A DNA stretch of 64,000 bases from Candidatus Bathyarchaeia archaeon (GCA_049512075.1 JBEKXL010000004.1:64001-128000), one strand, 5' to 3'; numbered from the stretch's first letter, positions 1,657 to 53,624 are shown. Notes: generated by a model not told the origin, from the letters alone. Translations and numbers: made by a program.

Positions 1657-1680
1657 TTAGTGTTTCTCAATTCTCCATTT
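1657..1680 (-). other. displaced native 3' end of cysS (KWRIEKH*)
   Basis: Minus strand reads AAA TGG AGA ATT GAG AAA CAC TAA; joins cysS in frame through the shared TCTCCATTT. Confidence 0.75.
1672..1680 (+). repeat. E1 left att core TCTCCATTT
   Basis: Identical to 12613-12621. Confidence 0.75.
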
Positions 1681-1799
1681 ACTAGGCTTGTAAGCCACGT
1701 TTGAATGTTGGAAAGTGTATGAGAATAACGGTGTTTCATGCACAACCCTTTCAAAATTCCTTTAGTTGTTGTTGTTTGAGGTAAATAATAATATAAACC

Positions 1800-2927
1800 C
1801 TATCCTCTCGTTTCCTGATTTGTCACTTGCGGGTCCGTCTTAAGCTCACGGATGCCATGCCCCACAGTGGTTTCAGCATACTTGCCATGTGCCCGTTTGC
1901 ATGGAGCACAGAAGCCGCTCCTCTGAACTGACAGGTTGTGCCTGTCAACATGCAGCAGCGGAGTTCTGCTTGAACGGTGAAACCTGCTTGCAAGTTGCAC
2001 GTAACCCATGCCTTCCTCAACGTACGCTAAAATCATCGAAACATGCTCCGCATCACCGACGGTTTTGAAGCGCCCCCTATCAACGGACTCCGTCAACATT
2101 TCGCTATACTCGATTCGGAAGCCTAAGTTTCGCAGTATGTCCTCATTGGCTGTTTTGTGCCATGGAATCTCCTTAAAGACTCCGTAGCCTATTGCTCCTC
2201 GGCGTGACAGTACAACGAACCTTTGCGGCTGCATGTCTCGCAGCATGTTGGCAGAAACAAACTTGTACATCCACCGCAAATCTTTGCCTAAACCTGGCGC
2301 TCCCTGGGACTTCAAAAACGTGAAGTCCGCAACGGTTCGCACATCAACATCAACGCTTGAGAATCGCAGACTGTCCAAGCCCATCGAAACACCCAAATGA
2401 CGACTCTCGCGAAGCAGATATGCAACTTGACTTTTTGCCTCCAACTGATTTTCGGAGACCCTCAACCTCGAATAGAACAAGTTTGCCGCTTCCCTCGCGA
2501 CACAATAGATCAGTTTTGAATAGTGCAGTCTTCTGTACATAACGTCAAGTGTGTGAGCGCCTGCCGAAAACTCTTGAGCTATGTTCGCGAACATCGGACT
2601 TGCAGAGATAATCATGTTGTACGTGTTAAGATCATGCAATGTCAACGAGTCTGCAACTCGCGTTTCATAGGAACAGCTAACATCCACGTTTTCGCCTTTG
2701 AGCAACAGAATTTTTGCGTCTGTTGCAGCGGGACTTCTCAACCATGCCAAGCCCTCGCCGTCCCTGCTGCCGAAGAGGTCTAGGATGGAGTGGCCGCGTT
2801 CGATGAAGGATTCTCCGATGCTTTCAAGCAAACTGCTTTTTCCAGACCCTCTCGTACCCAACACAAAGAAAACTGACGGTGCATCATAATTAATAACGTC
2901 TTTACCCCTGCACCATCGCACAATCAC
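1800..2927 (-). CDS. P-loop NTPase, FtsK/HerA/A32-like (packaging/extrusion-type), with C-terminal HTH-like and CxxC region
   Basis: Walker A GTRGSGKS, atypical Walker B CVAREA, ESRH arginine-finger-like motif. Confidence 0.6.
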   Translation of the reverse strand: MIVRWCRGKDVINYDAPSVFFVLGTRGSGKSSLLESIGESFIERGHSILDLFGSRDGEGLAWLRSPAATDAKILLLKGENVDVSCSYETRVADSLTLHDLNTYNMIISASPMFANIAQEFSAGAHTLDVMYRRLHYSKLIYCVAREAANLFYSRLRVSENQLEAKSQVAYLLRESRHLGVSMGLDSLRFSSVDVDVRTVADFTFLKSQGAPGLGKDLRWMYKFVSANMLRDMQPQRFVVLSRRGAIGYGVFKEIPWHKTANEDILRNLGFRIEYSEMLTESVDRGRFKTVGDAEHVSMILAYVEEGMGYVQLASRFHRSSRTPLLHVDRHNLSVQRSGFCAPCKRAHGKYAETTVGHGIRELKTDPQVTNQETRG

Positions 2928-3364
2928 TTTTCAGAACCGCCTTTTTCGTCTTCGTCTTTCTGTTGTTGTTCCAAATCTTTGAAGTTTCCTGCACCAACTG
3001 GCTCCCAGAACCGCTCTAAATATCCATGTGCCCACAAACTATCTTTGTAGAGGCTAAGCAGCCTTCGCGTTTCGCCGTACAGAAATTTTCTGCAGATCGC
3101 GTTAAACTTATCGTTTGAGACGCCTATGCCGTTAATCGGGCTGTAGGTTTGACGCTTGATTCTGACGATGGTTTGCTGTGCTCTGTCAAAGTCTGCTTTA
3201 CATTCGTGCACGACTTCTGGCGGCGCTACACTATTCAAAGTTTTAATGCACTCCCACGCGCCGACGCTGTTTCCATTGTTCATTTGGCTCACGACATCAT
3301 GCAGAGCTGCCACTAACAAGCTTTGATATGGCGGCTGGTAATTTCGCCGCTCAGGTTCACTCAT
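2924..3364 (-). CDS. hypothetical protein (E1)
   Basis: 146-aa ORF whose stop overlaps the ATPase start. Confidence 0.65.
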   Translation of the reverse strand: MSEPERRNYQPPYQSLLVAALHDVVSQMNNGNSVGAWECIKTLNSVAPPEVVHECKADFDRAQQTIVRIKRQTYSPINGIGVSNDKFNAICRKFLYGETRRLLSLYKDSLWAHGYLERFWEPVGAGNFKDLEQQQKDEDEKGGSEK

Positions 3365-3406
3365 TCTGACGATTCACCTCTTCCTTTTTGTTTTTCAATC
3401 ACACAC

Positions 3407-3592
3407 TCACTTTCTATTTCTTTTTCTCGGCACAGTCGGATTTTGATGGTAAGACTTATGCTCGGTCGCGTTTGCGAGTTCGCGCTCAAAATGCCGTCGG
3501 ATTATTGGATGTGCCTGAACCGTGTCCTGTGCTGCTTTAACTCGTTTCGCTGTGTAGCTTTCGACTGTTTCTTTCCTCACCAAATTTATCAC
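3407..3592 (-). CDS. small basic hypothetical protein (E1)
   Basis: Part of a tightly packed minus-strand operon, GAGGGGG upstream. Confidence 0.5.
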   Translation of the reverse strand: MINLVRKETVESYTAKRVKAAQDTVQAHPIIRRHFERELANATEHKSYHQNPTVPRKRNRK

Positions 3593-3598
3593 CCCCCT

Positions 3599-3787
3599 CT
3601 AAATCGTGTAAGCTTTGCTACCGTCACGCTCTCCAAGTTGTTTCTTAATCTGTTCTCGCTGCCTTTCCAGTTCCAAGCGAAGCTTTGTCTCACACAAGTC
3701 AAGCTTCATAGATTCTAAAGCCAAACGGTCAAACCTGTCTGTCATCCTTCTGTTTTTGCGTCTATGTTTCAGCCAAGCATTGAACAT
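3599..3787 (-). CDS. small coiled-coil hypothetical protein (E1)
   Basis: ATG directly follows the previous stop. Confidence 0.55.
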   Translation of the reverse strand: MFNAWLKHRRKNRRMTDRFDRLALESMKLDLCETKLRLELERQREQIKKQLGERDGSKAYTI

Positions 3788-4096
3788 CTATCTCTTCCTC
3801 CGCTTAGAAGCTGGTTTGCCAGCGAACACTGTGCCCAAATTGTCAACTCGGTGGCTGACCTTCTGTGTGCGTTGGGTGAAAGTTGGCCTCGGTTTAGGAC
3901 GCGCTGCACGTGGCAAAGGTGTATGATGGATTGGTTCGCTTGAGGGTGAGTAAACAATGATTTTCTGCCTTGGCAGATAATTGACCCTATGTTGCGGTTG
4001 CTTCGGTTGCTCTTGCGTCGTCTCTTGTGAAGTGTCGCTCTCGGAAGATTTCCAAACCTTGCCATTGCGTTTCTTTCTCCATGCTGAACCCGACAT
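3788..4096 (-). CDS. basic low-complexity hypothetical protein (E1)
   Basis: Abuts both neighbours; Lys/Arg/Pro rich. Confidence 0.5.
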   Translation of the reverse strand: MSGSAWRKKRNGKVWKSSESDTSQETTQEQPKQPQHRVNYLPRQKIIVYSPSSEPIHHTPLPRAARPKPRPTFTQRTQKVSHRVDNLGTVFAGKPASKRRKR

Positions 4097-4098
4097 GC

Positions 4099-4245
4099 CT
4101 AATCAACCTCTTCAACGGTCACTTCATAATCTCGCAACTTCGCTTTAGCGTGGATTTCAGCCGCAAGCCTCTGGCACTCCAACAAGACACGCCGTCGCGC
4201 CCTCTCTTCGACGCTGATAGGCTCAACCACATCAGACCCACTCAT
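4099..4245 (-). CDS. 48-aa hypothetical protein MSGSDVVEPISVEERARRRVLLECQRLAAEIHAKAKLRDYEVTVEEVD (below track cutoff)
   Basis: Translated by hand; ATGA overlap with the upstream gene; fills the operon gap. Confidence 0.55.
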   Translation of the reverse strand: MSGSDVVEPISVEERARRRVLLECQRLAAEIHAKAKLRDYEVTVEEVD

Positions 4246-4604
4246 TCTTCATTTTCCTCTGAATCAGCAGAATCAATGAAGGCAAATTCCTCGAAGCATT
4301 TGGTATGCGCATAGGCTCTCCTCATTCCCCGGACGCGTCCGTGTTGGCGTTTCGATTCTTGATAGGATAAAGGTCGGTATCGATGCCCTTTGTCCTCTGA
4401 AACCCATAACCGTTTCGAAACTTTAGGCTCATTCGGCTGGATAATTCTGTGACAATAGCGGCATACTTTTGGTGGACTTGTGCGTGTGTGCTTTTTGGGT
4501 TTCTCTTTACTACTCGTTACCGTGTTACTGAGTTTACCGAGTTCCTCCAGAGCGCAGGCATCTTTTTGAGTGTTTTCTCCATGCTTTTCTTCCATTGTGT
4601 CCAT
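4242..4604 (-). CDS. small zinc-finger protein (CxxC...HxxC)
   Basis: CRYC ... AHTKCFE. Confidence 0.6.
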   Translation of the reverse strand: MDTMEEKHGENTQKDACALEELGKLSNTVTSSKEKPKKHTRTSPPKVCRYCHRIIQPNEPKVSKRLWVSEDKGHRYRPLSYQESKRQHGRVRGMRRAYAHTKCFEEFAFIDSADSEENEE

Positions 4605-4662
4605 GCTTTTCCCCCCCTACGCTCCTTCGGAACTTAGTAAACTTGGTAACTTGGTAACGAGT
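4512..4662. repeat. 34-bp imperfect inverted repeat built of GTTAC-like iterons, putative E1 origin
   Basis: 4512-4545 matches the reverse complement of 4629-4662 at 28/34 positions. Confidence 0.65.
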
Positions 4663-6735
4663 TCGTAACCGTACTTCTTTGCTACCCGCCGAAGCTTTTC
4701 TAAAGGAAAAAGGTAGCTTTTGGTTGACGCCCAGTGGCCTTCAGAATCCTTTTCTCTTATGACCTTTGTTTCACCGCTAAGTATCTCTCTGAGCCTATAG
4801 CCCACCCTGTTCTTTGTGATTATTCCAAAGTCGCCAGTATCCATCTCGTTGGGTTTGTTCTCGTTCACTCGACCATTCAACTCGTAACCTAGCTCCTGCC
4901 ATATAGTTCTGAAGGGCAAAGACTCGATGACAAACTTAGCTTCATTGTGGAGGTCTACGACGACCTTAACGATTTTTCCCTCTAACGTGTCCTGCCTGCC
5001 GCTCAACCTAGCTTTGCTCTGCTCATCCACAAACTTGAACAGGTTATCATAGAATGGCAGGCCAACTGTAATTTGTAGAAGAGGCTTCCAGAGTTCCTTG
5101 AGCCTCCCTTTTACGGCAAGTTCAACAGCAGGCAGCTCTAAGCCTCGGGTTTCCATCCGCCATTTCAGAAGCATGTTTCTAAGGGTCTGCATCCGCGCTT
5201 TGTCTTCCTTCGTTAAATCAGCCCATTCTTTTCGCGGGGACCCTTCAACCATTGCGATGAAGAGGAATCTCTCGTTAAATCCCTTCACTTGGGGTATCTG
5301 CTCGCTGGCGCATGATTTGAAACAGAAGGTTCGATAATACTTGATTATCCTGTCGAAACTTGTTATCAGGGTTCTAGGAACCACTGCTCCCGCCTTGTAT
5401 CCGGCTTTGTAAATCTTGATTTTGTCCGTGTCTTTGTGGATGCCTTGCACTTCGTCTTCAAGTATGCAGCCCTGCCCATCAGAATCTTCTAGGTATCCGT
5501 AGAGGTCAGCGGAGGGGATTGTCACGCCGTACATTGGGCGGTAGGACAGGTTCTTTAAGACGTTGAGGACGGTGGATTTTCCGCTTTCATTGTCACCGTA
5601 CAAGAAGAGATAGGGGACTGTAGTAAGCTTCTCTTGTTGATAGGTCAACATGACACATGCGGTTAGAACGTCCTTCCAAATTGGCTCTACATCAACCCAG
5701 GTTTCAAACTCGTCGCGGATCTGTGCGGCTAATTCTTTTTGGCTGGGTGTCTGTCCGATGATGTATCCGTAAGGCTCGTATGGGACATTCTGCATTTCCT
5801 TTGGAGCAAAGGTTTCCTCGCATATGTCTACAGTTTCGATTAGACTGAAGTCTCCGCCATTCAACTTTAGAAAGAAGGGTCTTCCATCATTGTAGACAGC
5901 TTCGAAGCACCCTTCTGCTAGTATGCCCGAGTCCTTCAGTTTCCGCCGTGTTTTCTTCTCGACTGGCTCGGCTATGTTGTCAGTCTTGCTTTTTCTTGCG
6001 AGAGCGTTTTCTACCATGCGTTTTAAGTCGGCCTCATTCATGGGAGGATCGTTTAGTTTGTTCCATTCTTGCATGGCATGAAAGGCTGTTGCCGCATCGA
6101 ATGTTTGAACTCCAACTAGATAGTTAGCGAATTTTATGCCTTGCGCGTGTCTTGTGCCCTGCGGAACTCCTTTTCGCATTTGCTCAAAAGTAATGGGCTG
6201 TTTAGGATCACTGCCTAAGTAGGGTTCAAAAAGCTTCATAAAATCGTCATACCGCATTTTTGCGAAGGGACGGTCTTGGGTGATCGTGTAAGTTCCTATT
6301 TTAGGCTCACTGGTCCTCAAGTCTCTGTAGTGAATTTCTGTTCCTGGAGCTACCAAGTAATAGTTTTGCGCTCGAATTTCTCCGCACCCTTCATCTTCGC
6401 CCTTCAAGTGCAAAGTTTTGTTTTGAACCTGTCCGCCTTCGACAACAACATAGAAATGAGTTAGTCCGCGGCGGGGGCTGCGAACCTCAAACGTGGGGGG
6501 GGAGAATCTGTCTTAGTATTGTGTCCATGCTCACTTTATCCGCGTCAACGAGAACTAACCCGTCTCTGCCGCATATTCCCCAGCAAGGCCAACCCTTCAT
6601 TTCTTGCGGCGTGTACAGTCTGTTTTGCCATTCAGATTCAAACGCTGCTTTTTCATCATTAAGTTTCAAGAATCTTCGTGTGTCGAATCCGGCTTCTTGG
6701 AGTCGTTGGATTAATGTCTGTTGCTCAGCATTCAA
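4617..6735 (-). CDS. Prim-Pol (AEP) - PriCT - P-loop replication protein, frameshifted at a G8/C8 tract (6495-6502)
   Basis: LVDAD motif in 6487-6735; removing one C gives ...ILPPTFEVRSPRRGLTHFYV...EIRAQNYYLVAPG; PriCT-like GTRH...EWN..NDPPM; Walker A GDNESGKST. Confidence 0.75.
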
Positions 6736-6753
6736 AAGGAAGAAGCCCCCAGG

Positions 6754-7056
6754 CTACTTTGGGATTGTAAAGTGTGACGCTCGACCTGCGCTCACGTAAC
6801 TCCCGTTGTATTCACGGACAATCTTAGAGAGTTCTGCAAATGTTGACGGTTGTAAGAAAGCGCGGGGGCGAATTTCCCAGTTGGTTATCATGTCGGAAAC
6901 CGTAACAAGCTCAGACAGGTTTTCAGGGAAAACAGGAGGTTTGATGTTGCTTGGAATCTTTGCCGGTTCACCGACTTTTTGAACATGTAATTTTCCCTCA
7001 TAGAACTTTTGTCCAATCTTCACAAGTATCTCGATTTCTTGAGCCTGTTCGCTCAT
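6754..7056 (-). CDS. conserved ~100-aa element protein, homolog of 48121-48411
   Basis: Shared KIGxxFYEGKLHxQKVGxPAKxPSN and YVSAGxxSHFxIPK. Confidence 0.8.
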   Translation of the reverse strand: MSEQAQEIEILVKIGQKFYEGKLHVQKVGEPAKIPSNIKPPVFPENLSELVTVSDMITNWEIRPRAFLQPSTFAELSKIVREYNGSYVSAGRASHFTIPK

Positions 7057-7157
7057 GCTAATTCACCACGAAGGACTTTTCGGGCCTCTGAAAGTTGTTC
7101 CTGCAAACTCGCAAGCAACTCTCTGACCTTGGCAAGCTTTTCCGCGTCGCTAGACAT
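7053..7157 (-). CDS. 34-aa coiled-coil peptide MSSDAEKLAKVRELLASLQEQLSEARKVLRGELA
   Basis: Translated by hand; starts right after the RHH stop and ends in an ATGA overlap. Confidence 0.55.
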   Translation of the reverse strand: MSSDAEKLAKVRELLASLQEQLSEARKVLRGELA

Positions 7158-7343
7158 TTACGTTATCACCTTGACGCCTAATGCTTTCTTGTCGTCAGCC
7201 GACAGGTATGATAGGCTGGCAAGCTCTTTTCGGACGGCCCGTCTGACAAAATCGCTTAGATCTTCGCCTCTGGACTTTGAAACTTTTTTTAGTAAGTCCT
7301 TGTCTTCTACGCTGATTCGTACACCAATTATGCAGTTGCTCAT
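7158..7343 (-). CDS. ribbon-helix-helix (CopG-like) regulator
   Basis: IGVRISVEDKDLLKKVSKSRGEDLSDFVRRAV pattern. Confidence 0.8.
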   Translation of the reverse strand: MSNCIIGVRISVEDKDLLKKVSKSRGEDLSDFVRRAVRKELASLSYLSADDKKALGVKVIT

Positions 7344-7396
7344 AGTTTGACACTGTCAAACTTTAAATAGATAAGTCTAGTAGCTTACTAAGTAAG
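7344..7396. promoter_or_regulatory. divergent promoter/operator region of E1
   Basis: Perfect palindrome AGTTTGACA-C-TGTCAAACT (7344-7362), TTTAAA box, CTTACT-A-AGTAAG (7384-7396). Confidence 0.65.
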
Positions 7397-7404
7397 GTGA
7401 AAAA

Positions 7405-8202
7405 GTGAAACCCGGCGAATACAAAATCGTAGCACACCTAATGAATGAATATCCAAAAGGCTTAACATTCACAGAACTGAAGGAGAAAACAGGCCTTTCA
7501 GCTCCATCACTCAACGAGTACCGGGTGAGCCTACTCAAAGACGGAATGATTCTGTACAATCCAGCAACGAGACAGTATTCAGTCGCAGCTGCGTATCATC
7601 CAACAGAAAAAGTGTCCACTCACCTAAAACGCAACTTGTCCTATTTGCTCAGTGACATGCCATTTGAAGGCAGTAGAATCGCAATGGTTAAGGATGTTGA
7701 ACTGCGAAAGAGGATCTTCATTAGTTTCCTGTCTTACCATTTGAGCAATGTTTCTGTGTTGGTTCTCGCTGCTATAAGTGATGCGTTGGATCAAACGCTT
7801 GGGCAAAACAAGAAGGCAAAGTATGTAGTTGAAGAAAAGCTTGAATCAGGAAAAAAGGACAAAACGAAGGAGGTGAAAGCATTCTTCAACTATTGGGAAG
7901 GCGAATTAAGTCAGTTCCATTCTGTAATGAATGATAGGATGCAAAACTGGATAATTCCATATATTCAAATGATGGCGTTAGCCGATTTTGGCAATGCAGA
8001 CTTGGGTATGAAACGGATAATTGAGGAATTGACGAAGCGGTTCAGTCCTGAAGCAGAAGAAACCACTCTTTGGTTCCGCGAACTCGAGGCACTGGACCAT
8101 GAGTTCGCAAGTAAGAATCCTGAATTTGCGGAGTTAAAAAGGCAGGCAGATGACCTTAGGAGAGAACGAGCATACGCGCATGAAAATGAAAAGAAGGAAT
8201 AG
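7405..8202 (+). CDS. winged-HTH transcription regulator (putative repressor)
   Basis: GLTFTELKEKTGLSAPSLNEYRVSLLKDGMI at the N-terminus. Confidence 0.7.
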   Translation: MKPGEYKIVAHLMNEYPKGLTFTELKEKTGLSAPSLNEYRVSLLKDGMILYNPATRQYSVAAAYHPTEKVSTHLKRNLSYLLSDMPFEGSRIAMVKDVELRKRIFISFLSYHLSNVSVLVLAAISDALDQTLGQNKKAKYVVEEKLESGKKDKTKEVKAFFNYWEGELSQFHSVMNDRMQNWIIPYIQMMALADFGNADLGMKRIIEELTKRFSPEAEETTLWFRELEALDHEFASKNPEFAELKRQADDLRRERAYAHENEKKE

Positions 8203-8204
8203 GC

Positions 8205-46821: not shown

Positions 46822-46833
46822 GAATAAGCAAAG

Positions 46834-47787
46834 CTACCGTTCCTTCTTTTCTTCTGTTTCTAATTTTTCCGATTCAGAAGAACCCGGAGGAGTCGAAATA
46901 ATCGTTTCCTCAGTCATGCCTGAAGTAATGGGTTTTCGAGAGCGTTTTATCCGCTTCCAATAACGACTCCAATGCTTCATCACTTCACGGTCATGTTCAC
47001 ACCGTTCTGTCATCTGTTCCAAGGTAGTATCAGCTAAGGCGGTCAGTTCCTTGTCAAGTTTGAAGACTGGTAGAAAATCCTCTCGGCTGTCTGGATGGAA
47101 AAGAACTATTCTAACAAATGTTTCCTTTCTTATTTCTTCAGCACGTGCAAGTGCTTTTTTGGTTCCCCATTTAATGAGTGCTCTCTCTTCAGCAGTGTCA
47201 ATTTGAGCATTAAACAGGGAAATGCCAAAATCTTCTATGAGTGACGATATATTCATAGCTTTTTGTTCCTCAGTCTTTTCCCGGGGCACAGGAACAAATT
47301 CTAAGTCGCCTTGTGATGTTATGTTCTTTTCTTTCTCAATCAGCGTTAGGGGATAATAATAATTTCTGAAATAGTTTTTCACGTTCTCGATGATCCTGTT
47401 CTTCAGGCCATGAACAGTGAAGAATTGCCACTTTCCGAGTACCGGGGGAAGTAATTTCTCGTGTTGACAGGCGATAGCATCAAAATCCTTTTCCTGTAAT
47501 TTATCAAGAGTTAGAGCAAAATATTGGAGCAGCCCCTCCAGTGTCATATCATAAGAGTCAACCTTCAAGCTGGGGTTTTTCGATGATGGCTCAGATTTTG
47601 CTTTCACTATTAAGTGATTCTCAAGTAAATCGCTGATCGTGTCATGTATGTTACCGTAACTTCTATGCAAAAGGCGTTTGAGTTCCCATCGGTTTTTAGG
47701 TTCTCCTGTTGCTAGGAGTTGTAGAATAGCTAGGTTTGTTGGTTCTTTGGTTCGTGGTTTTCTTTCATGGGATACTATCTTTGTCAT
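46834..47787 (-). CDS. winged-HTH regulator (putative repressor) of E2
   Basis: ILQLLA...NRWELKRLLHRSYGNIHDTISDLLENHLI...Y.MTLEG. Confidence 0.7.
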   Translation of the reverse strand: MTKIVSHERKPRTKEPTNLAILQLLATGEPKNRWELKRLLHRSYGNIHDTISDLLENHLIVKAKSEPSSKNPSLKVDSYDMTLEGLLQYFALTLDKLQEKDFDAIACQHEKLLPPVLGKWQFFTVHGLKNRIIENVKNYFRNYYYPLTLIEKEKNITSQGDLEFVPVPREKTEEQKAMNISSLIEDFGISLFNAQIDTAEERALIKWGTKKALARAEEIRKETFVRIVLFHPDSREDFLPVFKLDKELTALADTTLEQMTERCEHDREVMKHWSRYWKRIKRSRKPITSGMTEETIISTPPGSSESEKLETEEKKER

Positions 47788-47820
47788 AGTCTACTGATAA
47801 GTGACAAAAGATATATATAC
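47780..47820. promoter_or_regulatory. divergent promoter/operator of E2
   Basis: TTTGTCA (47780-47786) / TGACAAA (47802-47808) inverted repeat next to ATATATATA. Confidence 0.5.
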
Positions 47821-47858
47821 TTATCGCTGTACGTACTACTATCTTAGAGGAAAGACAG

Positions 47859-48128
47859 ATGCCCGCAAAAATATTCAGAAAGGTTCTCAAATCCGGCGCT
47901 TCAAAATGCGCTGCGTTACCACCTGATTGGCTACGCATGTTCAACCTACGGGTAGGCGACGACCTTGACATTATCTACAATTCCATAGTTATCGTGAAAG
48001 CAAAAGACTTCAAAATTGACCCAGAATTTCTGAAAAAAGAATTCAAGTTGATTCTTGATTTGGAAAAGAATGCTCAGGACCGCGTTGGACTGAGAAAGAA
48101 GAGCCAGGAGGCCAAGGCCATTGAGTGA
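47859..48128 (+). CDS. AbrB/MazE-like DNA-binding protein
   Basis: RKVLKSGASKCAALPPDWLRMFNLRVGDDL. Confidence 0.8.
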   Translation: MPAKIFRKVLKSGASKCAALPPDWLRMFNLRVGDDLDIIYNSIVIVKAKDFKIDPEFLKKEFKLILDLEKNAQDRVGLRKKSQEAKAIE

Positions 48129-48411
48129 AGACACGGTTGATGTCCTTCTCAAAATTGGAAACCGATTCTACGAAGGCAAACTACACCCTCAAAAAGTAGG
48201 ATCACCCGCAAAGCTTCCAAGCAACAAACCCGTTTTTCCAGAGCCCTATCAGCAAATGTTGGATACAACAGATCAAGGAACATACTGGCAGATAAAACCG
48301 AGAACTTTCTTACAAACTTTCGATTTTGCAGAAATCGCTAGAATTGTAAAGCAGTATGGCGGAGCTTACGTTTCTGCTGGAAAGTCCTCCCATTTTCGTA
48401 TACCAAAATGA
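48121..48411 (+). CDS. conserved ~100-aa element protein, homolog of 6754-7056
   Basis: Direct visual alignment to the E1 protein. Confidence 0.8.
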   Translation: MSEDTVDVLLKIGNRFYEGKLHPQKVGSPAKLPSNKPVFPEPYQQMLDTTDQGTYWQIKPRTFLQTFDFAEIARIVKQYGGAYVSAGKSSHFRIPK

Positions 48412-48432
48412 AATACCGCTGGGGGTCACAGC

Positions 48433-49248
48433 ATGACATGGAAGCCTAACGCTGAAACCAAACAGCTCCTAGATTTTTGCGTTGCCACAATAAAGAGCGT
48501 TCCGTACAAACCTAATCTCCGCTGGCTGTTCTATCGTGCGCTACAGAGTGGCCTCCTGAAGGATAAGGGAGAAGCCAGCGTTCACAAGTTTGACTATGCC
48601 CTTTCCCGCGCTCGCAAAGAGTTTTATGATGAATGGAAACCCGACAGCCTAGAAGATAGTGTACGGCAAGGATTCTGGAAGGGAGAGTTTTTCGCTGGCT
48701 ACGATGTAAGGCTAGATAACATTGAAGAACAGGAGAACTATGTTCAGGTTTGGTTTGAAGCCTACGCCATGTTCCAACAGTTCACCCATTACACGCAACC
48801 TTACCGGGTGTCCTTAGTTCCGTTTCGCGGTGACTGTTCTATTCCGTTGAAATGGGAATTGGCTAAGAAGCTGGAAGAAATCAACGGATCCTATCACAAG
48901 CCAACCAAGATTCTATACTTTGGAGATTATGACCTTAAAGGCTTCCAGATTCTTGAGGCTGCATTGAAGGATATTAAGGCATGGTGCAACGTGCCTTTCA
49001 CCGTTGAACGTGTTGGCCTCACACTAGAACAGGTCAAGGAGTACGGCATACCTGAAAACCCTGAGCACCCTGACGCATATCAGTGGGAAGCATTGAACGA
49101 TAAACAAGCTGGAACATTGATAATCAACAGTATAGCCAGCCTAGTCAAACCAGTTTTACCCGGGTTGGAAGAGCAGGAGAAGCTGATAAAATCCAAGATT
49201 AACACCGCTATGGTCACGATTCTGCAACAGGAAGGCGTTATCGAATGA
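48433..49248 (+). CDS. wHTH + Toprim protein (Topo VI-A/Spo11-like Toprim)
   Basis: LRWLFY, VWFE, RG.CS, ILYFGDYDLKG, ERVGLT.EQV, WEAL. Confidence 0.7.
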   Translation: MTWKPNAETKQLLDFCVATIKSVPYKPNLRWLFYRALQSGLLKDKGEASVHKFDYALSRARKEFYDEWKPDSLEDSVRQGFWKGEFFAGYDVRLDNIEEQENYVQVWFEAYAMFQQFTHYTQPYRVSLVPFRGDCSIPLKWELAKKLEEINGSYHKPTKILYFGDYDLKGFQILEAALKDIKAWCNVPFTVERVGLTLEQVKEYGIPENPEHPDAYQWEALNDKQAGTLIINSIASLVKPVLPGLEEQEKLIKSKINTAMVTILQQEGVIE

Positions 49249-49337
49249 ACGACCCCAAAGACGCCGACATTAAAGCTGCAGCTCAACGCGCGCTACGAGT
49301 ATCTCAGCGGAGACGGAGACTAACAAACCATGACTGA
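49245..49337 (+). CDS. 30-aa basic peptide MNDPKDADIKAAAQRALRVSQRRRRLTNHD
   Basis: Translated by hand; overlaps both neighbours. Confidence 0.4.
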   Translation: MNDPKDADIKAAAQRALRVSQRRRRLTNHD

Positions 49338-51939
49338 AAACTCCGCCATACCTGAGCAACTTAGAACATGGTGTTTCATACTTCTCTCAGGACACACTAA
49401 GATTCCAACGGCTGAAATGAAAGGATGGGCTAAAGACCGAGCAAACAAAACATTCACGTATGATGATAAGCGGTTCATAGAACATATCACCGCGCATGAA
49501 AACTACGGTGCTGTGACTGGCGAGGACCGCTTTGTCGTGGCCGCCGACACTAAGGAAGTTGAAACAGCCATTGAAGAGCATCTACCTAAAACCTTCACTG
49601 TGCAGAGTCCAAGACATAAGACTAAACATTTTTACTTCTATGGAAAACTCAGTCGAACAATACTCTGTAAACCGACAACTGAAGGCGATCCTTGCGCTGA
49701 CATTAAAACTGGAAATGCCTATGTACTCAGTGCTGGAGACATTTTTGAAAATTACGGCAAATACACCGTGATAGACAATGTGCCAATAGCAACAATCACG
49801 GAAGAGCAATTACTAGCCGCGATAGATGAGTTTATACTACCTAAAAAGGAAACACGTTTTCTAACCATAACAAGCGAAAAACACGATAAGAACTTGGACT
49901 TTCCAATCACCTCTATTCTTCCAAACCTTGACGCTTTAACACAGAACAACGATGAAATGTTTGGTCCTCATCCTCTACATGGCAGCACAACAGGAGCCAA
50001 CTTTCACGTAAACACGGCTAAGAATGTGTGGCACTGTTTCAGATCGGGACATGAAAGCGGCGGCGGCCCCCTGGAACTATTCGCGGTTCTAAACGGAATC
50101 GTCAACTGTGAGGACTGTCATAAAGGCGTACTACATGGAGAGCTATTCAAAAAAACCGTTATGCTAGCACATGAAAAAGGCTTAGTGGCCTCTATATCTT
50201 TTCAAGATTCAGAAGAGCAAGAGGATAAAGAACATGAACTTATGCGAAAAGTCGTAACAGGCCTTCAGTCTCAATTCACGTTCAAAACGCCTAGCGATAT
50301 TGAAGAAATCTATGTTTTTAATAAGGGCGTTTATGAAGAGGCTGAAACGATGATTAAAGGCCAGGTTGAACAGTGGCTAGGGACCGAGGCAACCACACAT
50401 TTTATTGAGGAAGTTCTCGGACATATACGCCGTAGTAGTTACGTTAAGCGCTCAGAGTTTAACAAACCATCAGCTATTATCCCGGTGCAGAATGGCCTTT
50501 TAGACTTGAACAGTGGTGAGGTCAGTCCATTCGATAAAGAACAAATCTTCACATTCAAACTAAATATGGTCTATGATAAGACAAAGAAGTCTCTCAAATT
50601 TCTGAAAGCTGTACATGAATGGCTAAACTCTCAAGACGTTATTACCCTGCAGGAAGTCTCAGGATATTGCTTACTTCCAGCTATGCCTTTTCATAAGTTG
50701 TTTTTCCTTCATGGAACGGGATTCAATGGGAAAGGGAGCTTCATAAGAACATTAATCGCCATTTTTGGAATTGACAACTGTTCAAACCTGAATCTGGAAG
50801 AGTTTGACGGTAACCACCGATTCGCTACGGCTCTACTCTATGGTAAAATGATAAACACGTCTAGCGAGCCAAAAACAGATAAACAATTACAAACGAATTT
50901 ATTGAAAAAGGTATGCGGCGAAGACTACATAGACTCTGAAGTGAAAAACAAACAGAGAAGAATACACCATGTGAGCGCCGCTAAACCTTTCATTCTTGGA
51001 AACAGATTCCCACGAGTAAACGATAACACAGTGGCCTTTTGGGAACGCGTAACAATACTCAAGTTTCCATCAAATTTCATAGGAGACAAACAAATACCAT
51101 GCATCTGGAACACATGGATAAACGATCCTGATGAAATGAGCGGGATCCTAAACTGGATGATTGAAGGGCTACAGAGACTAATAAAAAACAACAAGTTCAC
51201 CGAAAGCAAAGATTCTGAAGAGACAAAGCTGGAATTTCAAAGAGCCAGTGACACAACATTAGCGTTTCTCAATGAATGTTGCACTATTGACCGAGTAACT
51301 CAAAACATAAAATCCGACTTCTACGACCAGTACAAAACCTATTGCGAAAAGCTCAACGTAGAAATAGACCCTGAGAACATGTTTTCAGCAAAACTCAAGC
51401 AACAGTCAGGGGTCAGAAGTACAAGACAGCATGTAGAAAAAAAACTTGAACATTTATGGGTCGGCATAAAATTCAACGATTATCCTAAAGAAGAGGGAGA
51501 GGAAGAAAAATCTGAAAAGTCAGGGAAACAAAAAAATCATGGAACTCAAAAGAAACTAGACCAAAGTGTTCCACCTGTTCCAACTGTTCCACCCTTTACA
51601 AAGTCAAACGCTGTAGAAGATAGTAAGGGTATAGAAAAGAGAAGTAGTAAAAGGTATGGAACACCTGGAACAGGTGGAACAGTCATCGAGTCAATAGGGA
51701 AGACTGTTCCAGACGTTCCAACAGAAATAAGCAAACAATTAGAAAAGGAAAACTTGACCGTTAACCGCTGTAAGAAGCATCGTACAGCAACCTGCCCACA
51801 TCCTAATCGCGACTGCATAGCGCCGACTAATTCGTGTCCAAAGACTTGTGGAGATTTTGTTTCTGTGGAGGATGACGCTAAGGCTAAGGGTGCAGCTCTC
51901 GAGTTGAATGGTGACAGTGGGAGGCTAGGGCATGACTGA
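49330..51939 (+). CDS. Prim-Pol - Zn-binding - D5/SF3 primase-helicase (P4-like)
   Basis: NYG, PKTFTVQSP..TKHFYF, HPLHGS..G.NF...WHCFR, VQNGLLDL, GTGFNGKGS, AFWER. Confidence 0.9.
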   Translation: MTENSAIPEQLRTWCFILLSGHTKIPTAEMKGWAKDRANKTFTYDDKRFIEHITAHENYGAVTGEDRFVVAADTKEVETAIEEHLPKTFTVQSPRHKTKHFYFYGKLSRTILCKPTTEGDPCADIKTGNAYVLSAGDIFENYGKYTVIDNVPIATITEEQLLAAIDEFILPKKETRFLTITSEKHDKNLDFPITSILPNLDALTQNNDEMFGPHPLHGSTTGANFHVNTAKNVWHCFRSGHESGGGPLELFAVLNGIVNCEDCHKGVLHGELFKKTVMLAHEKGLVASISFQDSEEQEDKEHELMRKVVTGLQSQFTFKTPSDIEEIYVFNKGVYEEAETMIKGQVEQWLGTEATTHFIEEVLGHIRRSSYVKRSEFNKPSAIIPVQNGLLDLNSGEVSPFDKEQIFTFKLNMVYDKTKKSLKFLKAVHEWLNSQDVITLQEVSGYCLLPAMPFHKLFFLHGTGFNGKGSFIRTLIAIFGIDNCSNLNLEEFDGNHRFATALLYGKMINTSSEPKTDKQLQTNLLKKVCGEDYIDSEVKNKQRRIHHVSAAKPFILGNRFPRVNDNTVAFWERVTILKFPSNFIGDKQIPCIWNTWINDPDEMSGILNWMIEGLQRLIKNNKFTESKDSEETKLEFQRASDTTLAFLNECCTIDRVTQNIKSDFYDQYKTYCEKLNVEIDPENMFSAKLKQQSGVRSTRQHVEKKLEHLWVGIKFNDYPKEEGEEEKSEKSGKQKNHGTQKKLDQSVPPVPTVPPFTKSNAVEDSKGIEKRSSKRYGTPGTGGTVIESIGKTVPDVPTEISKQLEKENLTVNRCKKHRTATCPHPNRDCIAPTNSCPKTCGDFVSVEDDAKAKGAALELNGDSGRLGHD
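51567..51681. repeat. 3+3 inverted 9-bp iterons, putative E2 origin
   Basis: TGTTCCA(C/A)C x3 at 51567-51593 and NNTGGAACA x3 at 51655-51681. Confidence 0.7.
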
Positions 51940-53158
51940 AAACTCCACTAAATCAGTCATTAACGCAGTGCTCACAAAGGTACTAAGGACATGTGATAAA
52001 TGCCAAATAAAAACTGTTTTGTGCTGTCCTCAATGCAATTCTGATAAAATCGTGAAGGACGGTATGAGGCAATCCGTCTATGGAGAACAGCAACGTTACC
52101 TATGCAAGTCGTGTTATCTCCGATTCAGCAACAGCGACCCCGAAACAAAGGTGCAGAATCTGCACAATTCTTTTAAGGAAAGTCAGACAGAAAGCGGATG
52201 CGTCCAAATATGCGCTGAAAAGAAAGGAGTAGCGAAAAACTTGGACAACGCAACCATTGAGAAGGTTGCGGGAGAAACTCCAGATATTAAAGGCAAATTG
52301 GTACAGTACGCTTGGCAACTGACGAAACGCGGATTAGCTGAAGAAACCGTGAAGCATCGCCTTTACCGTTTGAACGTGCTTGTAAAGAAAGGAGCTGACC
52401 TAACTAATCCTGAAACCGTAGAAACAATCCTGGCAACGGAACAATGGACACCTGGAAACAAACGGTTCTTTATCATGGCATACCAAAGTTTCTGTCGAAC
52501 TATGAACATTGAATGGGTAGCCCCCCGAAACAAGTGGCAACCTCCACAGCCCTTCATACCCTTGGAATCAGAAATAGACGCATTGATTTCTGGCACTGGA
52601 AAAAGAACGGCCACACTACTGCAAATTTTGAAGGATACCGGGGCACGAATAGGAGAAGCCTCACACCTACGATGGACAGACGTAAACATGGAAAACAGCA
52701 CCATAGCCATAAACAACCCTGAAAAAGGATCATCATCTAGGACGCTGAAAGTGTCAAGCAAAACTATCGCTATGCTTAACGCCCTGCCAAAGAAAGGCCC
52801 TTTCATATTCAACGTCAAACCGCGCACCCTGGAAAGCACGTTTGACCGTCAACGGAATAGGTTAGCCCTTAAACTTCAGAACCCAAGACTGAAACAAATC
52901 CACTTTCACACCTTCCGGCACTGGAACGCAACAATGACATACCACAAAACCCGAAACATACTGCTAGTCAAATACCGACTGGGACATAAACGCTTAGAAA
53001 ACACGGAAGTTTACACGCACTTGGTAGATTTTGAGAACGACGAATACGACAGTGCAGCAGCTCAAACAAAGAATGAGGCAAGACAACTTATAGACACAGG
53101 ATTCGACTACGTGACCACAACCCCGGACGGTTTCATGCTGTTCAGAAAACGGAAGTGA
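51932..53158 (+). CDS. tyrosine integrase of E2 with N-terminal zinc ribbon
   Basis: CPQC...CKSC; TGARIGE, PEKG, HTFRH, LGH, VY; ends 34 bp from the att repeat. Confidence 0.92.
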   Translation: MTENSTKSVINAVLTKVLRTCDKCQIKTVLCCPQCNSDKIVKDGMRQSVYGEQQRYLCKSCYLRFSNSDPETKVQNLHNSFKESQTESGCVQICAEKKGVAKNLDNATIEKVAGETPDIKGKLVQYAWQLTKRGLAEETVKHRLYRLNVLVKKGADLTNPETVETILATEQWTPGNKRFFIMAYQSFCRTMNIEWVAPRNKWQPPQPFIPLESEIDALISGTGKRTATLLQILKDTGARIGEASHLRWTDVNMENSTIAINNPEKGSSSRTLKVSSKTIAMLNALPKKGPFIFNVKPRTLESTFDRQRNRLALKLQNPRLKQIHFHTFRHWNATMTYHKTRNILLVKYRLGHKRLENTEVYTHLVDFENDEYDSAAAQTKNEARQLIDTGFDYVTTTPDGFMLFRKRK

Positions 53159-53189
53159 AAAGCATGGTATCCAATCAAAAAACAATGTA

Positions 53190-53624
53190 TCAAAGCTGAT
53201 ACCCTGCCTGTACGGCCGTGTTGTCAACTTTGGCGCTCATTCTGCTGGCTCGGCGCAGAGCCTCGACGTTGTCGTCTGAAAACCCAAATTCTTCTCCGAC
53301 TGTGCCTATTTCCATTGGTGCCTTTCGAGAGGCTCTGCCTTTTCCGCCGCACACAGCGATACCGTGCTGCTGAGATGAGATGGCTTGTTTCAGAATTCCT
53401 GTCACAACCGTGGTTACTCCTGAAGAATGCCAGTCGTAACCTAGGACGCAACCCAATGCTTGGAACCAAAATGGATCTGAAACTCGTCTCAGAAACTCGT
53501 CTGAGCCGTACTCGTCAACGATGATTGTCACTATTTCTTTGGCCATCTTTTGCATGCGTACAATTAGATATTGAGGCGCCCTACCATAATGAAGTGGGAG
53601 TCTGGCAATGCCTGTTCTTTGCAC
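53190..53624 (-). pseudogene. DUF763 gene, 5' half (truncated by E2)
   Basis: LPLHYG, DPFWFQALGCVLGYDWHSSG.TT, GGKG, AKVDNTA.Q.GYQL then an element-derived TGA. Confidence 0.92.

Follow-up and report, generated by a model that had tools for sequence, protein, structure and literature searches.

Two integrated elements of a Bathyarchaeia chromosome probably lie within a loose gene-sharing network

Gene content and ends of E1 and E2

The window, which is the whole stretch of 64,000 nucleotides that was analysed (GCA_049512075.1, JBEKXL010000004.1:64001-128000), carries two integrated elements with exact ends, E1 and E2. The host is a peat archaeon of the Bathyarchaeia, and the proteins of the elements' chromosomal neighbours are 96% identical to those of a named Bathyarchaeia MAG. 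E1 (1672-12621, 10,941 bp) occupies the 3' end of cysS and has a 9-bp direct repeat, AAATGGAGA on the minus strand, present at 1672-1680 and 12613-12621. E2 (35706-53197, 17,486 bp) interrupts a DUF763 gene, and its core, of 6 bp, reads AGCTTT on the minus strand in both copies.

Features of E1 and its target
1672-1680, no strand: left att core, 9 bp; adjoins the displaced original cysS 3' end; G402 flanks unbroken across the core
1800-2927, minus: P-loop ATPase, 375 aa; HerA/FtsK-like predicted fold, as a lead only
2924-4604, minus: small genes (ORFs) of 146 aa, 62 aa, basic 102 aa (23 K+R) and 120 aa
4512-4662, no strand: inverted iterons, putative origin; 47-nt arms at 4512-4558 and 4616-4662, 77% complementary, GGTAAC-type units
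4617-6735, minus: Prim-Pol/helicase replicase, frameshifted; one gene, break in the C8 run at 6495-6502
6754-7056, minus: ~100-aa protein with a conserved ~70-aa C-terminal domain
7158-7343, minus: RHH protein, whose gene opens the replicase operon
7405-8202, plus: putative wHTH regulator, divergent from the RHH operon
8745-8859, plus: promoter-block copy; palindrome at 8748-8764, TATA-like box, ribosome-binding site and ATG
8855-10913, plus: operon after the block, ORFs of 92, ~119, 81 and 232 aa
10998-11022, plus: 25-nt block copy, 24/25 identical to the E2 copy
11316-12533, minus: tyrosine integrase, 405 aa, XerA-like, without Zn ribbon; Pfam Phage_integrase 2.5e-14
12592-14022, minus: cysS, by Pfam assignment
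12613-12621, no strand: right att core, 9 bp, within the last codons of cysS

Features of E2 and its target
34993-35705, minus: C-terminal part of the interrupted DUF763 gene
35706-35711, no strand: left att core, 6 bp, adjoining the C-terminal DUF763 piece
37463-38488, minus: second, divergent recombinase-like ORF, 341 aa; Phage_integrase 3.3e-4, 20.9 bits, under the cut-off
38570-41503, minus: surface protein, 977 aa, PKD domain; Pfam PKD_4 3.7e-17
41491-42536, minus: small proteins of 83, 70 and 89 aa, with two hydrophobic segments each, and of 65 aa
42600-43316, minus: 238-aa protein, single N-terminal hydrophobic segment
43550-43574, minus: 25-nt block copy, partner of the E1 copy
43888-44885, minus: HTH protein of 183 aa (Pfam HTH_20 6e-8) and 197-aa protein
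45611-46706, minus: operon after the block, ORFs of 90, 219 and 67 aa
46702-46820, minus: promoter-block copy; palindrome at 46804-46820
46834-47787, minus: wHTH regulator, 317 aa; Pfam HVO_A0114 6.6e-7, 29.5 bits, above the cut-off
47859-48128, plus: AbrB/MazE-type DNA-binding protein; MazE_antitoxin 1.9e-5, 25.0 bits (cut-off 24.7)
48121-48411, plus: ~100-aa domain protein, homologue of the E1 copy
48433-49248, plus: Toprim-like protein, 271 aa; phrog_6247 'DNA topoisomerase' 1.1e-18 (PHROGs)
49330-51939, plus: Prim-Pol and D5-type SF3 helicase replicase, 869 aa (Pfam)
51567-51720, no strand: inverted iterons within the replicase 3' end, with GTTCCA units in the order 3 forward, 3 reverse, 2 forward
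51932-53158, plus: tyrosine integrase, 408 aa, N-terminal Zn ribbon; Pfam Phage_integrase 8.9e-20
53190-53624, minus: N-terminal piece of the split DUF763 gene
53192-53197, no strand: right att core, 6 bp, where the N-terminal DUF763 piece ends

Both elements have direct-repeat flanks, and both sites are empty in a genome of the same genus (G402), where cysS runs straight into a gene for a 183-aa protein and DUF763 is unbroken. Comparison with G402 placed the crossovers inside the 9-bp core of E1 and the 6-bp core of E2. Of the 18 other genomes with a match, 17 have DUF763 as a single open frame of 372-409 aa, compared with 158 aa here. A tyrosine recombinase gene lies beside one end of each element, 80 bp from the att core in E1 and 34 bp in E2, with Phage_integrase scores of 53.9 and 71.6 bits, respectively (Pfam cut-off 27.1). 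The G+C content is 45.2% in E1, 42.8% in E2 and 49-50% in the flanks. The ends given in the initial annotation (1672 and 53197) coincided exactly with att cores, and its proposals that these were integrative elements of a Bathyarchaeia host and that both had protein-coding targets were borne out by the cores, the empty G402 sites, the neighbouring proteins and the identity of the target genes. A contig of another metagenome (X7) starting at 12613 has nine extra letters, which are those of window positions 1663-1671. Among the contigs of the four runs compared with E1, no back-joint of an excised E1 circle was found. We infer that E1 and E2 can be excised.

The E1 ATPase had no match in Pfam or INPHARED, and its only match in PHROGs was a weak one to the terminase large subunit (E = 0.0043). 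Its structural neighbours in the ESM Atlas were DUF87/HerA clusters (TM 0.57-0.67). The RHH protein matched TacA1 at 21.1 bits (cut-off 21), DUF6290 (8e-5) and RHH_1 (0.0015) in Pfam. No Pfam match was found for the 146-, 102- and 120-aa proteins, for the wHTH protein or for the operon after the block. Contig C10, from the same genome, encodes a 46% homologue of this operon's 92-aa protein. Residues 1-60 of the 7405-8202 product were predicted by AF2 to have an H-b-H-H-b-b topology (pLDDT 70-90, the remainder being of low confidence), and this gene is a putative wHTH by that predicted topology. The integrase matched XerA_Arch in NCBIfam at 8e-23, under the cut-off. The iterons were the longest inverted pair found inside E1.

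The two frames of the E1 replicase meet at the C run. When the gene was read through, with an X at the break, its match to the E2 Prim-Pol spanned the break (E = 4e-9 in a five-sequence search), and its match to an element-like locus of another genome (L050) reached 8e-155. The Prim-Pol domain was visible only after this read-through. For the candidate D5-type SF3 helicase of E1, a Walker A-like GKS motif can be seen by eye, and there was no sequence match in Pfam, NCBIfam or PDB. Since the gene is broken in all three runs matching this genome (X1, X5 and X6), E1 may not replicate alone. X7 holds a replication module 98% like that of E1, with one C fewer (C7) and the replicase frame open. No virus capsid or conjugation hallmark genes were found in E1 by Pfam, and PHROGs, which covered three E1 proteins, gave only the weak terminase match. 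E1 has the look of a cryptic, plasmid-like element, with a replicase that is frameshifted in this lineage.

In the E2 replicase, Prim-Pol, D5_N, DUF5906 and Pox_D5 were all over their Pfam cut-offs, with Prim-Pol at 28.2 bits (cut-off 22.8). The Toprim-like protein matched JetD_C weakly in Pfam, and the 341-aa recombinase-like ORF matched XerA in NCBIfam at 0.009. The integrase is 37-43% identical to those of loci L050, L051 and L052 of other genomes, and the wHTH protein is related to those of L051 (9e-7) and L050 (1.4e-5). L056 carries the same pair of HTH and 197-aa genes, with the 197-aa proteins 31.5% identical (E = 6e-19), and the 67-aa protein has homologues in L048 as well as on two contigs, C9 and C10. 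C10 also carries a copy, 93% identical, of the 289 nt (43577-43855) that adjoin the 25-nt block. The 977-aa protein has hydrophobic segments at residues 7-34 (N-terminal, signal-like) and 947-977 (C-terminal anchor). There was no Pfam match for the 83- and 65-aa proteins, no PHROGs match for the 83-, 70- and 89-aa proteins, no INPHARED match for the 83-aa protein and no relative of the 238-aa protein in searches that included all three databases. E2 has no visible damage, and all long ORFs of both elements are open except the frameshifted E1 replicase. Searches of Pfam, PHROGs and INPHARED found neither a capsid protein nor any further virus hallmark in E1 or E2. With its membrane and surface-protein module, E2 may be a virus.

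What the two elements have in common

In E1, the wHTH gene (plus) is divergent from the RHH gene, which is followed by the ~100-aa gene and the Prim-Pol/helicase gene, all on the minus strand. In E2, the wHTH gene (minus) is divergent from the AbrB gene, followed by the ~100-aa gene, the Toprim-like gene and the Prim-Pol/D5 helicase gene, all on the plus strand. This common layout had been described in the initial annotation, as had the inverted iterons, which lie at the 3' end of each replicase gene, and the homology of the ~100-aa proteins. The latter are 56% identical (E = 2.7e-40), and no other pair was clearly significant when 76 E1 ORFs were compared with 103 E2 ORFs by BLASTP. A Prim-Pol replicase had also been assigned to both elements; Pfam supports it for E2, and the E1 gene is frameshifted, which the earlier reading did not mention. 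The two Prim-Pol domains match weakly. The wHTH genes correspond by position only, with no detectable relationship between their proteins (hhalign E 0.22-0.24), and the integrases are unrelated by BLASTP. Gene families and target sites agree with the earlier view that integrase, target gene, helicase and late module all differ.

Two non-coding blocks are common to E1 and E2, one of 25 nt and a promoter block of ~115 nt. The promoter block holds a 17-nt palindrome with 16/17 positions in agreement, a 13-nt box and, over the ribosome-binding site and ATG, a perfect 21-mer. It is real, but to call it near-identical was too strong, as its identity averages 76% over the alignment; genes do lie downstream of it, but the name 'RHH-like' found no family match. 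The palindrome has two matches in the window against 0.21 expected, and within this genome the palindrome block occurs in E1 and E2 only. The E1 and E2 copies of the 25-nt block, which has no significant structure, are likewise the only two in the genome. Both blocks were absent from the other fetched loci, IMG/VR contigs and independent metagenome contigs. They may reflect recent exchange between co-resident elements and not common descent. The layout that E1 and E2 share is real but thin.

Recurrence of the core in other genomes

The ~70-aa domain belongs to a family of 798 representative clusters (profile search, E ≤ 1e-3). The E1, E2 and chromosomal copies align with 61 relatives in a conserved C-terminal motif, in which the F, G, Y, G, S and F columns are invariant. 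Residues 41-100 of the E1 protein were modelled by AF2 with pLDDT > 90, and no clear structural match was found for the domain. There was no Pfam family in the 64 members scanned. A chromosomal paralogue adjoins RtcA.

Eleven loci with extra copies were taken from other genomes, three of them chromosomal (L053, L057 and L058) and eight element-like. The core, which is a wHTH gene divergent from an AbrB or RHH gene, the ~100-aa gene, a primase/helicase gene and often a Zn-ribbon integrase gene, was found in five of the eight element-like loci, in other Bathyarchaeia. A divergent wHTH gene was present in L050, L051, L052, L054 and L055 (5/8), AbrB or RHH immediately upstream in L048, L051, L054 and L055 (4/8), a primase/helicase immediately downstream in L050, L051, L052 and L054 (4/8) and a Zn-ribbon integrase within 5 kb in L050, L051 and L052 (3/8). 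The wHTH Pfam matches in these loci were mostly under the gathering scores, and the HxlR match of L052 alone passed. L050 is a mosaic of an E1-type helicase (54% identity) and an E2-type integrase (39%). Further elements in the same genome as E1 and E2 have other single genes in common with one or the other.

The initial annotation had proposed the ~100-aa protein, among others, as a probe, and in other genomes the markers shared by E1 and E2 were indeed associated with integrases and primases. The mosaic part of its 'mosaic family' stands, as L050 mixes E1 and E2 modules, but 'one family' overstated the case for elements that have in common one clear homologous gene, two short DNA blocks and Prim-Pol domains that match weakly. 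No described group containing E1 and E2 was found in the literature, INPHARED, PLSDB or IMG/VR, as had been suggested, but the general kind has been described in the sister lineage (PMC6563490). E1 and E2 are within a loose gene-sharing network of Bathyarchaeia elements, not a tight family.

Interpretation and comparison with known systems

We think it likely that E1 and E2 are separate mobile elements with a common replication-and-control core, within a loose Bathyarchaeia network that exchanges modules. What was observed comprises the insertions and where exactly they end, the gene families, the gene and the DNA blocks common to both elements, and the reappearance of the core in other genomes. 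Each element lies in a protein-coding gene of the chromosome and would owe its insertion to its own tyrosine recombinase. The core consists of a wHTH regulator divergent from an operon for an RHH or AbrB repressor-type binder, the ~100-aa protein and the Prim-Pol/helicase. An excised circle could replicate as an episome, whether of virus or plasmid nature, with the primase-helicase starting at the iterons at the replicase 3' end as the likely origin. The small DNA binders and a presumed palindromic operator in the promoter block may set the choice between quiescence and expression, and network elements would swap integrase, helicase and late modules.

Another possible explanation, though a clearly less likely one, is that E1 and E2 are unrelated, with no family behind them, and that their likeness comes from a short cassette (~100-aa gene, promoter block and 25-nt block) exchanged by recombination in the same cell, as local gene flow. 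The single significant protein pair in the ORF comparison and the restriction of both DNA blocks to E1 and E2 are in keeping with this, and other resident elements share single genes or DNA with them, for example the 289-nt copy on C10. However, the shared gene is 56% and the block ~76% identical, so such an exchange was not recent. Also, the same gene order, with very different sequences, is found in five of the eight element-like loci, and the Prim-Pol domains match weakly too. It is unlikely that both regions are decaying remnants (genomic islands) that have lost mobility. The E1 frameshift in X1, X5 and X6 and the lack of a circular form in the contigs compared with E1 would fit, but the att cores are intact with empty sites in the same-genus genome, the other long ORFs are all open, E2 is undamaged and X7 has the restored frame.

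In the Sulfolobales, pSSVx and pSSVi depend on fuselloviruses as helpers for spread. A comparable arrangement, in which E2 or a different virus-like resident would have E1 as its satellite or dependent partner, seems quite unlikely to us. The shared operator block would then place both elements under one repressor, and the 25-nt block would be a common recognition site, for example for packaging. The two are co-resident, E2 has a membrane and surface module and E1 has none, and the two shared non-coding blocks are better conserved than nearly all E1 and E2 proteins. Yet the ATPase, integrase and replicase of E1 are its own, the 25-nt block lacks significant structure, and run X7, whose contigs were compared with E1, holds a replication module like that of E1. 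An equally long shot is that the two are wired together through the shared palindromic operator and 25-nt site, by which the regulator or packaging machinery of one could act on the other. E1, with its broken replicase and no envelope genes, would then depend on a virus-like E2 to persist and spread. If so, the two would form a helper-satellite pair whose host belongs to an uncultured archaeal class, and the ~70-aa domain protein could be a new replication or nucleic-acid-handling factor taken from the cell. We favour separate elements in a module-exchanging network.

The pRN plasmids and pSSVi/pSSVx have a small RHH (CopG-type) gene upstream of, and co-transcribed with, a Prim-Pol/SF3-helicase replicase gene. 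The pRN family has a separate winged-helix DNA binder, and some of its members are integrative. On these general descriptions, the Bathyarchaeia core is similar in its small RHH gene directly before the Prim-Pol replicase and its separate winged-helix binder, but has an extra ~100-aa gene and, in half of the cases, AbrB for RHH. The E1 and E2 integrase genes are also not split by integration, unlike those systems. Splitting of an SSV-type integrase gene is a feature of the Fuselloviridae; this type was rejected for E1 and E2, in which the 405- and 408-aa ORFs are whole and the att cores lie outside them. Of the 523 records that PLSDB gave for the E2 replicase, four are from Sulfolobus, all with less than 60% identity.

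The E2 replicase matched, over its helicase portion, ORF21 of NMM1, a Nitrosopumilaceae spindle-shaped virus (BK067790.1), with 26% identity and E = 1e-20; the L052 helicase matched it with 30%. No other match to this 34-kb genome was seen at E ≤ 0.05 with 56 queries from E1, E2, the neighbouring host and related loci. As described, Huangdivirus ('Huangdiviridae'), a spindle-shaped provirus, resembles our elements in its Bathyarchaeia host and tyrosine integrase (PMC10848311). In the same account, spindle-virus capsid proteins are small with two hydrophobic segments, which is the shape of the 83-, 70- and 89-aa proteins of E2 (PMC10848311). No homology of E2 to virus structural families was found in Pfam, PHROGs or INPHARED, nor was an ATV-like AAA+ ATPase or VP2 found.

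The closest described kind, compared by description, is the cryptic integrated elements (CIE) of Thaumarchaeota, a sister lineage. According to Krupovic et al. 2019 (PMC6563490), CIE are 2.6-98 kb, mostly below 20 kb, with a tyrosine integrase, att sites down to 8 bp (median 17) and, in some, Prim-Pol fused to an SF3 helicase. Since 14 of 68 CIE are inserted in 3'-distal parts of protein genes, targeting such genes is not unusual. All CIE are joined in a gene-sharing network, their virus or plasmid nature is left unresolved and they are stated to have no signature gene. By that account, E1 and E2 are alike in their tyrosine integrase, short att, protein-gene targets and Prim-Pol replicase, but differ in host class and in having a recurring core with an unnamed ~70-aa domain protein. 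E2 differs further in cutting its target mid-gene (after residue 144 of ~395), not near the 3' end, and in its 6-bp core. E1 fits the operational class of CIE, with an integrase, att sites and no capsid or conjugation hallmark found by Pfam and by PHROGs on three proteins; the fit is uncertain for E2 because of its membrane and surface module. Since the replication-and-control core is also present in related archaea, E1 and E2 are new examples of a known archaeal kind of integrated plasmid or virus.

Insertion sites and genomic setting

Two integrated elements lie in the window, E1 (1672-12621) in the 3' end of cysS and E2 (35706-53197) within a DUF763 gene. The att cores were located by reading the split genes, and they coincide exactly with the ends proposed for both elements in the initial annotation. 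An exact-word search (k = 10) for long att repeats at the element ends gave nothing useful; the cores are shorter than this.

Insertion-site features of E1 and E2
11316-12533, minus: E1 tyrosine integrase (Pfam Phage_integrase, 2.5e-14), adjoining the cysS 3' end
12592-14022, minus: cysS, the target gene of E1
12613-12621 and 1672-1680: E1 att core, the 9-mer AAATGGAGA (minus strand), within the last cysS codons and with its second copy at the left end
53190-53624, minus: DUF763 piece, profile positions 1-139 (profile match)
34993-35661, minus: DUF763 piece, profile positions 156-319 (profile match)
35706-35711 and 53192-53197: E2 att core, AGCTTT, the only sequence common to both junctions

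In the same-genus genome G402, cysS continues through the 9-mer directly into the sequence found here to the left of 1672, and is followed by a 183-aa gene that corresponds to the window gene at 1062-1613. Since cysS of G402 is uninterrupted across the 9-mer, E1 is 10,941 bp long. Its insertion swaps the C-terminal tail of cysS, with six substitute residues compared to four original ones. A contig from the independent sequencing run X7, placed from 12613 onward, is preceded by nine letters matching 1663-1671, and this gives a small piece of added support for an empty E1 site in nature. On E1 itself, contigs of this run cover only ~4300-7460 and the flanks and none spans the element, which was not counted as absence.

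E2 is 17,486 bp long. It interrupts DUF763 after residue 144, and a stop codon comes immediately past the core. The DUF763 gene of G402 is whole; as far as the core its sequence is that of the right junction, and beyond the core that of the left junction. Two misplaced alignment rows, G403 at the DUF763 site and G404 at the cysS site (wrong strand or position), were disregarded. Of 18 other genomes in which DUF763 was matched, 17 have it as a single open frame of 372-409 aa, compared to 158 aa here; the exception, G401, has it as two adjacent pieces. The proposal that both elements target protein-coding genes is borne out. The window contains no tRNA genes, and no Rfam family reached gathering score in it.

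The G+C content is 45.2% for E1 and 42.8% for E2, compared to 49-50% around both elements. The window lies in contig C4 of a 2.73-Mb genome in 86 contigs, and RtcA and GuaA proteins encoded elsewhere on the same chromosome are 96-97% identical to those of a MAG titled Candidatus Bathyarchaeia, so the host is a Bathyarchaeia archaeon. The runs in which window sequence occurs are metagenomes of peat, wetland and sediment; no RNA run is listed among them.

Layout, replicases and non-coding DNA shared by E1 and E2

The layout described in the initial annotation was found in both elements: a wHTH gene divergent from a small DNA-binding gene (RHH in E1, AbrB in E2), followed by the ~100-aa gene, a replicase and inverted iterons.

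Genes of the shared layout
7405-8202, plus: E1 putative wHTH gene, divergent from the RHH gene
7158-7343, minus: E1 RHH gene (TacA1, DUF6290 and RHH_1 matches)
6754-7056, minus: E1 ~100-aa gene, after the RHH gene
4617-6735, minus: E1 replicase, after the ~100-aa gene
46834-47787, minus: E2 wHTH gene (HVO_A0114 match), divergent from the AbrB/MazE-type gene
47859-48128, plus: E2 AbrB/MazE-type gene, the first gene on the replicase side
48121-48411, plus: E2 ~100-aa gene, after the AbrB/MazE-type gene
After the ~100-aa gene: E2 Toprim-like gene (phrog_6247, 1.1e-18)
49330-51939, plus: E2 replicase (Prim-Pol/D5_N/DUF5906/Pox_D5)
51932-53158, plus: E2 integrase (Zn ribbon and Phage_integrase), overlapping the replicase gene by 8 nt

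The E1 wHTH protein had no Pfam match. In its AF2 model, residues 1-60 follow the winged-helix order (helix-strand-helix-helix-strand-strand) at pLDDT 70-90; the model is poor beyond these residues and has a mean pLDDT of 58. Homology between the two wHTH proteins was not supported, either by profile comparison (E-values of 0.22 and 0.24) or by BLASTP of the ORFs. An ORF of 34 codons that looks like a coiled coil was seen at 7053-7157 (minus), between the E1 RHH and ~100-aa genes, its 3' end overlapping the start of the latter. It may be the counterpart of the N-terminal coiled coil in the 140-aa chromosomal form of the ~100-aa protein.

When 76 E1 ORFs (at least 40 aa) were compared with 103 E2 ORFs by BLASTP, the ~100-aa proteins were the single strong pair (56% identity, 2.7e-40), in agreement with their proposed homology; the runner-up, at 0.001, involved an antisense ORF. 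The integrases and helicases of the two elements did not match each other. That both elements encode a Prim-Pol replicase holds directly for E2, by Pfam, and by a weak match for E1, where the gene is frameshifted. The E1 frame changes within a run of eight C (6495-6502). Read through with an X at the break, the protein is 705 aa long, and its residues 54-158 match E2 Prim-Pol residues 62-163 across the break, with only 23 bits and an E-value of 4e-9 that comes from a five-sequence search. Because the match runs across the break, we regard this weak homology as real.

Contigs of three runs keep all eight C: X1, which may be the source of the genome, and also X5 and X6. One contig of X7, another peat metagenome (1,689 nt, on 5897-7089, with 24 other differences), has one C fewer. 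Loss of one base restores the register of the two frames, since 6735-6413 = 322, and the X7 contig thus represents an open version of an E1-type replicase in another population. This homopolymer difference within a replicase gene between natural populations raises the idea that the C run may be a slippage switch.

Shared non-coding features
Replicase 3' end, E1: inverted iterons with 47-nt arms and GGTAAC-type units
Replicase 3' end, E2: inverted iterons of GTTCCA units, three forward, three reverse and two forward
8745-8859 (E1) and 46702-46820 (E2): shared promoter block, mean identity 76% across the alignment
10998-11022, plus (E1), and 43550-43574, minus (E2): second shared block, 25 nt, 24/25 identical, not listed in the initial annotation

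Both elements have inverted iterons, as described; these lie at the 3' ends of the replicase genes, and their unit sequences differ. The promoter block is also present in both elements, but a mean identity of 76% does not make it near-identical, as had been stated. Within it lie the 17-nt palindrome TGTTCGGACYGCGAACA, a 13-nt box and a TATA-like box, as well as a perfect 21-mer spanning the ribosome-binding site and start codon. The palindrome pattern has two matches in the window compared to 0.21 expected, and together with the 13-nt box the palindrome (with these spacer letters) occurs in the whole genome only at the E1 and E2 blocks. The 25-nt block has just two copies in the genome, one in each element, and each is followed by a hairpin; the hairpins differ. 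We rejected this block as a structured RNA, the folding z-scores (-0.25 to -1.68) not being significant. No conserved block was seen when the divergent intergenic regions were aligned. The shared regulatory DNA hints at cross-talk between the co-resident elements.

The ~100-aa domain and the recurring core

The C-terminal ~70 residues of the ~100-aa protein form a small alpha/beta domain that is well predicted in the AF2 model. A profile search with this domain gave 798 representative clusters at E <= 1e-3, including 481 at <= 1e-10, and many of the proteins carry two domain copies. No Pfam family was found for the domain on 10 relatives or on the 64 members of alignment A3; Pfam matched just N-terminal zinc ribbons in a few members. 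The ~100-aa protein had no Foldseek match in the PDB at E <= 1e-3, and the best Z of 5.8 in a wide VIA structure search is inside the stated noise range.

A 140-aa chromosomal paralogue lies on contig C1 of the source genome (137836-138258), between RtcA and an acylphosphatase gene. The same neighbours flank the homologue in 11 of 12 genome_contigs loci, 10 of which are titled Bathyarchaeia or Bathyarchaeota; the exception, L016, is a contig of 3 kb that lacks both. Across 401 genomes of the class, a profile search found a homologue in 183, including 101 of the 103 in the host's family. This unnamed small domain thus occurs in chromosomes and mobile elements alike, and because it is so widespread in chromosomes the ~100-aa marker alone is no sign of a mobile element; context is. 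One database contig titled Krumholzibacteriaceae (DATKLC010000139.1) carries a Bathyarchaeia-type RtcA, the domain gene, an acylphosphatase and GuaA at 60-63% protein identity, and is probably a mis-binned archaeal contig.

The domain profile found two IMG/VR contigs, whose copy is nearer to the cellular form; neither has a further E1 or E2 gene. Their homologue (143 aa, 47% to the chromosomal form) sits just upstream of a 564-aa ORF, within a run of large same-strand ORFs.

Eleven extra-copy loci from other genomes were compared, three of them chromosomal (L053, L057 and L058) and eight resembling mobile DNA.

Gene order in five of the mobile-like loci
L051: wHTH divergent from AbrB, domain gene, 855-aa primase-helicase, Zn-ribbon integrase, host genes
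L052: as L051, minus the small binder
L050: wHTH, domain gene, helicase 54% identical to that of E1, integrase 39% identical to that of E2
L054: wHTH, AbrB, domain gene, Pfam Prim-Pol protein
L055: RHH, domain gene, divergent wHTH

Among the eight, a divergent wHTH is present in five (its Pfam matches in these loci being mostly under gathering score), AbrB or RHH upstream of the domain gene in four, a primase or helicase downstream of it in four, and a Zn-ribbon integrase at most 5 kb away in three. The Zn-ribbon integrases of E2, L050, L051 and L052 share 37-47% identity. An integrase profile search of IMG/VR placed this clade on five contigs, with no other gene shared with E1 or E2 within 10 kb. 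L055 is a 6.2-kb contig (G396:C5) on which a Cas1 gene (3905-4984, Pfam Cas_Cas1 5.3e-46) directly follows the wHTH gene, between two domain-gene copies and with the RHH gene nearby. Such a locus could be a relative of the core of the Cas1-solo or casposon-like type.

With the ~100-aa domain as probe, the core was found with primase or integrase elsewhere, and this recurring core can be used to look for more elements. The promoter block found none outside the source: no IMG/VR contig matched, and the one metagenome contig that did is 100% identical to the window, and so is the same source rather than an independent occurrence.

Within the source genome, tblastn gave ~17 further matches to the E2-type Zn-ribbon integrase on ten contigs, a sign that the genome may hold many integrated elements or remnants of them. 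Homologues, full or partial and of 27-47% identity, were noted on C1, C3, C4 (25458-26117), C6, C9, C10, C12, C18 and C40. A third element-like region, on C10 (~16289-35000), has a Zn-ribbon integrase, an RHH gene divergent from a 474-aa wHTH gene, a 1,092-aa surface protein and homologues of the E1 92-aa and E2 67-aa proteins. Non-coding DNA of E2 (window 43577-43855) also has a copy on C10, 289 nt long and 93% identical. Four further links through single genes lead from E1 or E2 to contig C9; homologues of the E2 74-aa protein (85%) and of the E1-type helicase and integrase were seen there. What the initial annotation observed is confirmed in nearly every point. Its reading of a mosaic family was right in kind but overstated in degree: the picture is a loose network of gene sharing in which a replication core recurs, not a tight family.

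Relation to viruses, plasmids and known integrated elements

The left arm of E1 encodes a P-loop ATPase and small basic proteins; neither capsid nor conjugation genes were recognised in E1. As a lead only, an Atlas model of the ATPase resembles HerA/DUF87 ATPases. E2 encodes a 977-aa protein that has a PKD domain, a signal-like segment and an anchor segment. It also encodes three small proteins in which two hydrophobic segments occur, and a 238-aa protein that has a single such segment. These make E2 look like an enveloped or spindle-shaped archaeal virus, a likeness that no homology backs. INPHARED had no match to the ATPase of E1 or to the 238-aa and 83-aa proteins of E2, ESM Atlas nothing usable for the 238-aa protein, and INPHARED and PLSDB together gave helicase or integrase matches only, at ~25%.

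The Bathyarchaeia lineage is very abundant in sediments and peat and has no genetic system, and the literature on their non-tailed mobile elements is sparse. In the part available to us, a Bathyarchaeia virus survey proposes four families and defines its single spindle-shaped provirus by VP1-3 and an ATV-like ATPase (PMC10848311); unlike that provirus, E2 has neither that we could find. The proviruses mentioned in the accessible portions of two further papers are tailed or hallmark-bearing only (PMC11697101; PMC13573593). As the initial annotation had it, no described group was matched in the literature searched, INPHARED, PLSDB or IMG/VR. An earlier description of the recurring core was likewise not met in the literature, as far as its text was available, or in the databases searched; supplementary tables may list such elements.

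E1 and E2 reveal no new mechanism. With base-exact ends, attB sites, putative origins and regulators, they offer starting material for building a shuttle vector or an integration tool. Their features include a newly defined recurring core, a mid-gene insertion at a 6-bp core, a polymorphic replicase frameshift and shared regulatory DNA. The elements themselves are new members of an already known kind of archaeal integrated element. Thaumarchaeal cryptic elements, as described in the available part of PMC6563490, are integrase-bounded and mostly <20 kb, some with Prim-Pol/SF3 helicase, have att sites down to 8 bp, and in 14 of 68 cases lie in 3'-distal parts of protein genes. Compared by that description, E1 and E2 are of the same general kind.
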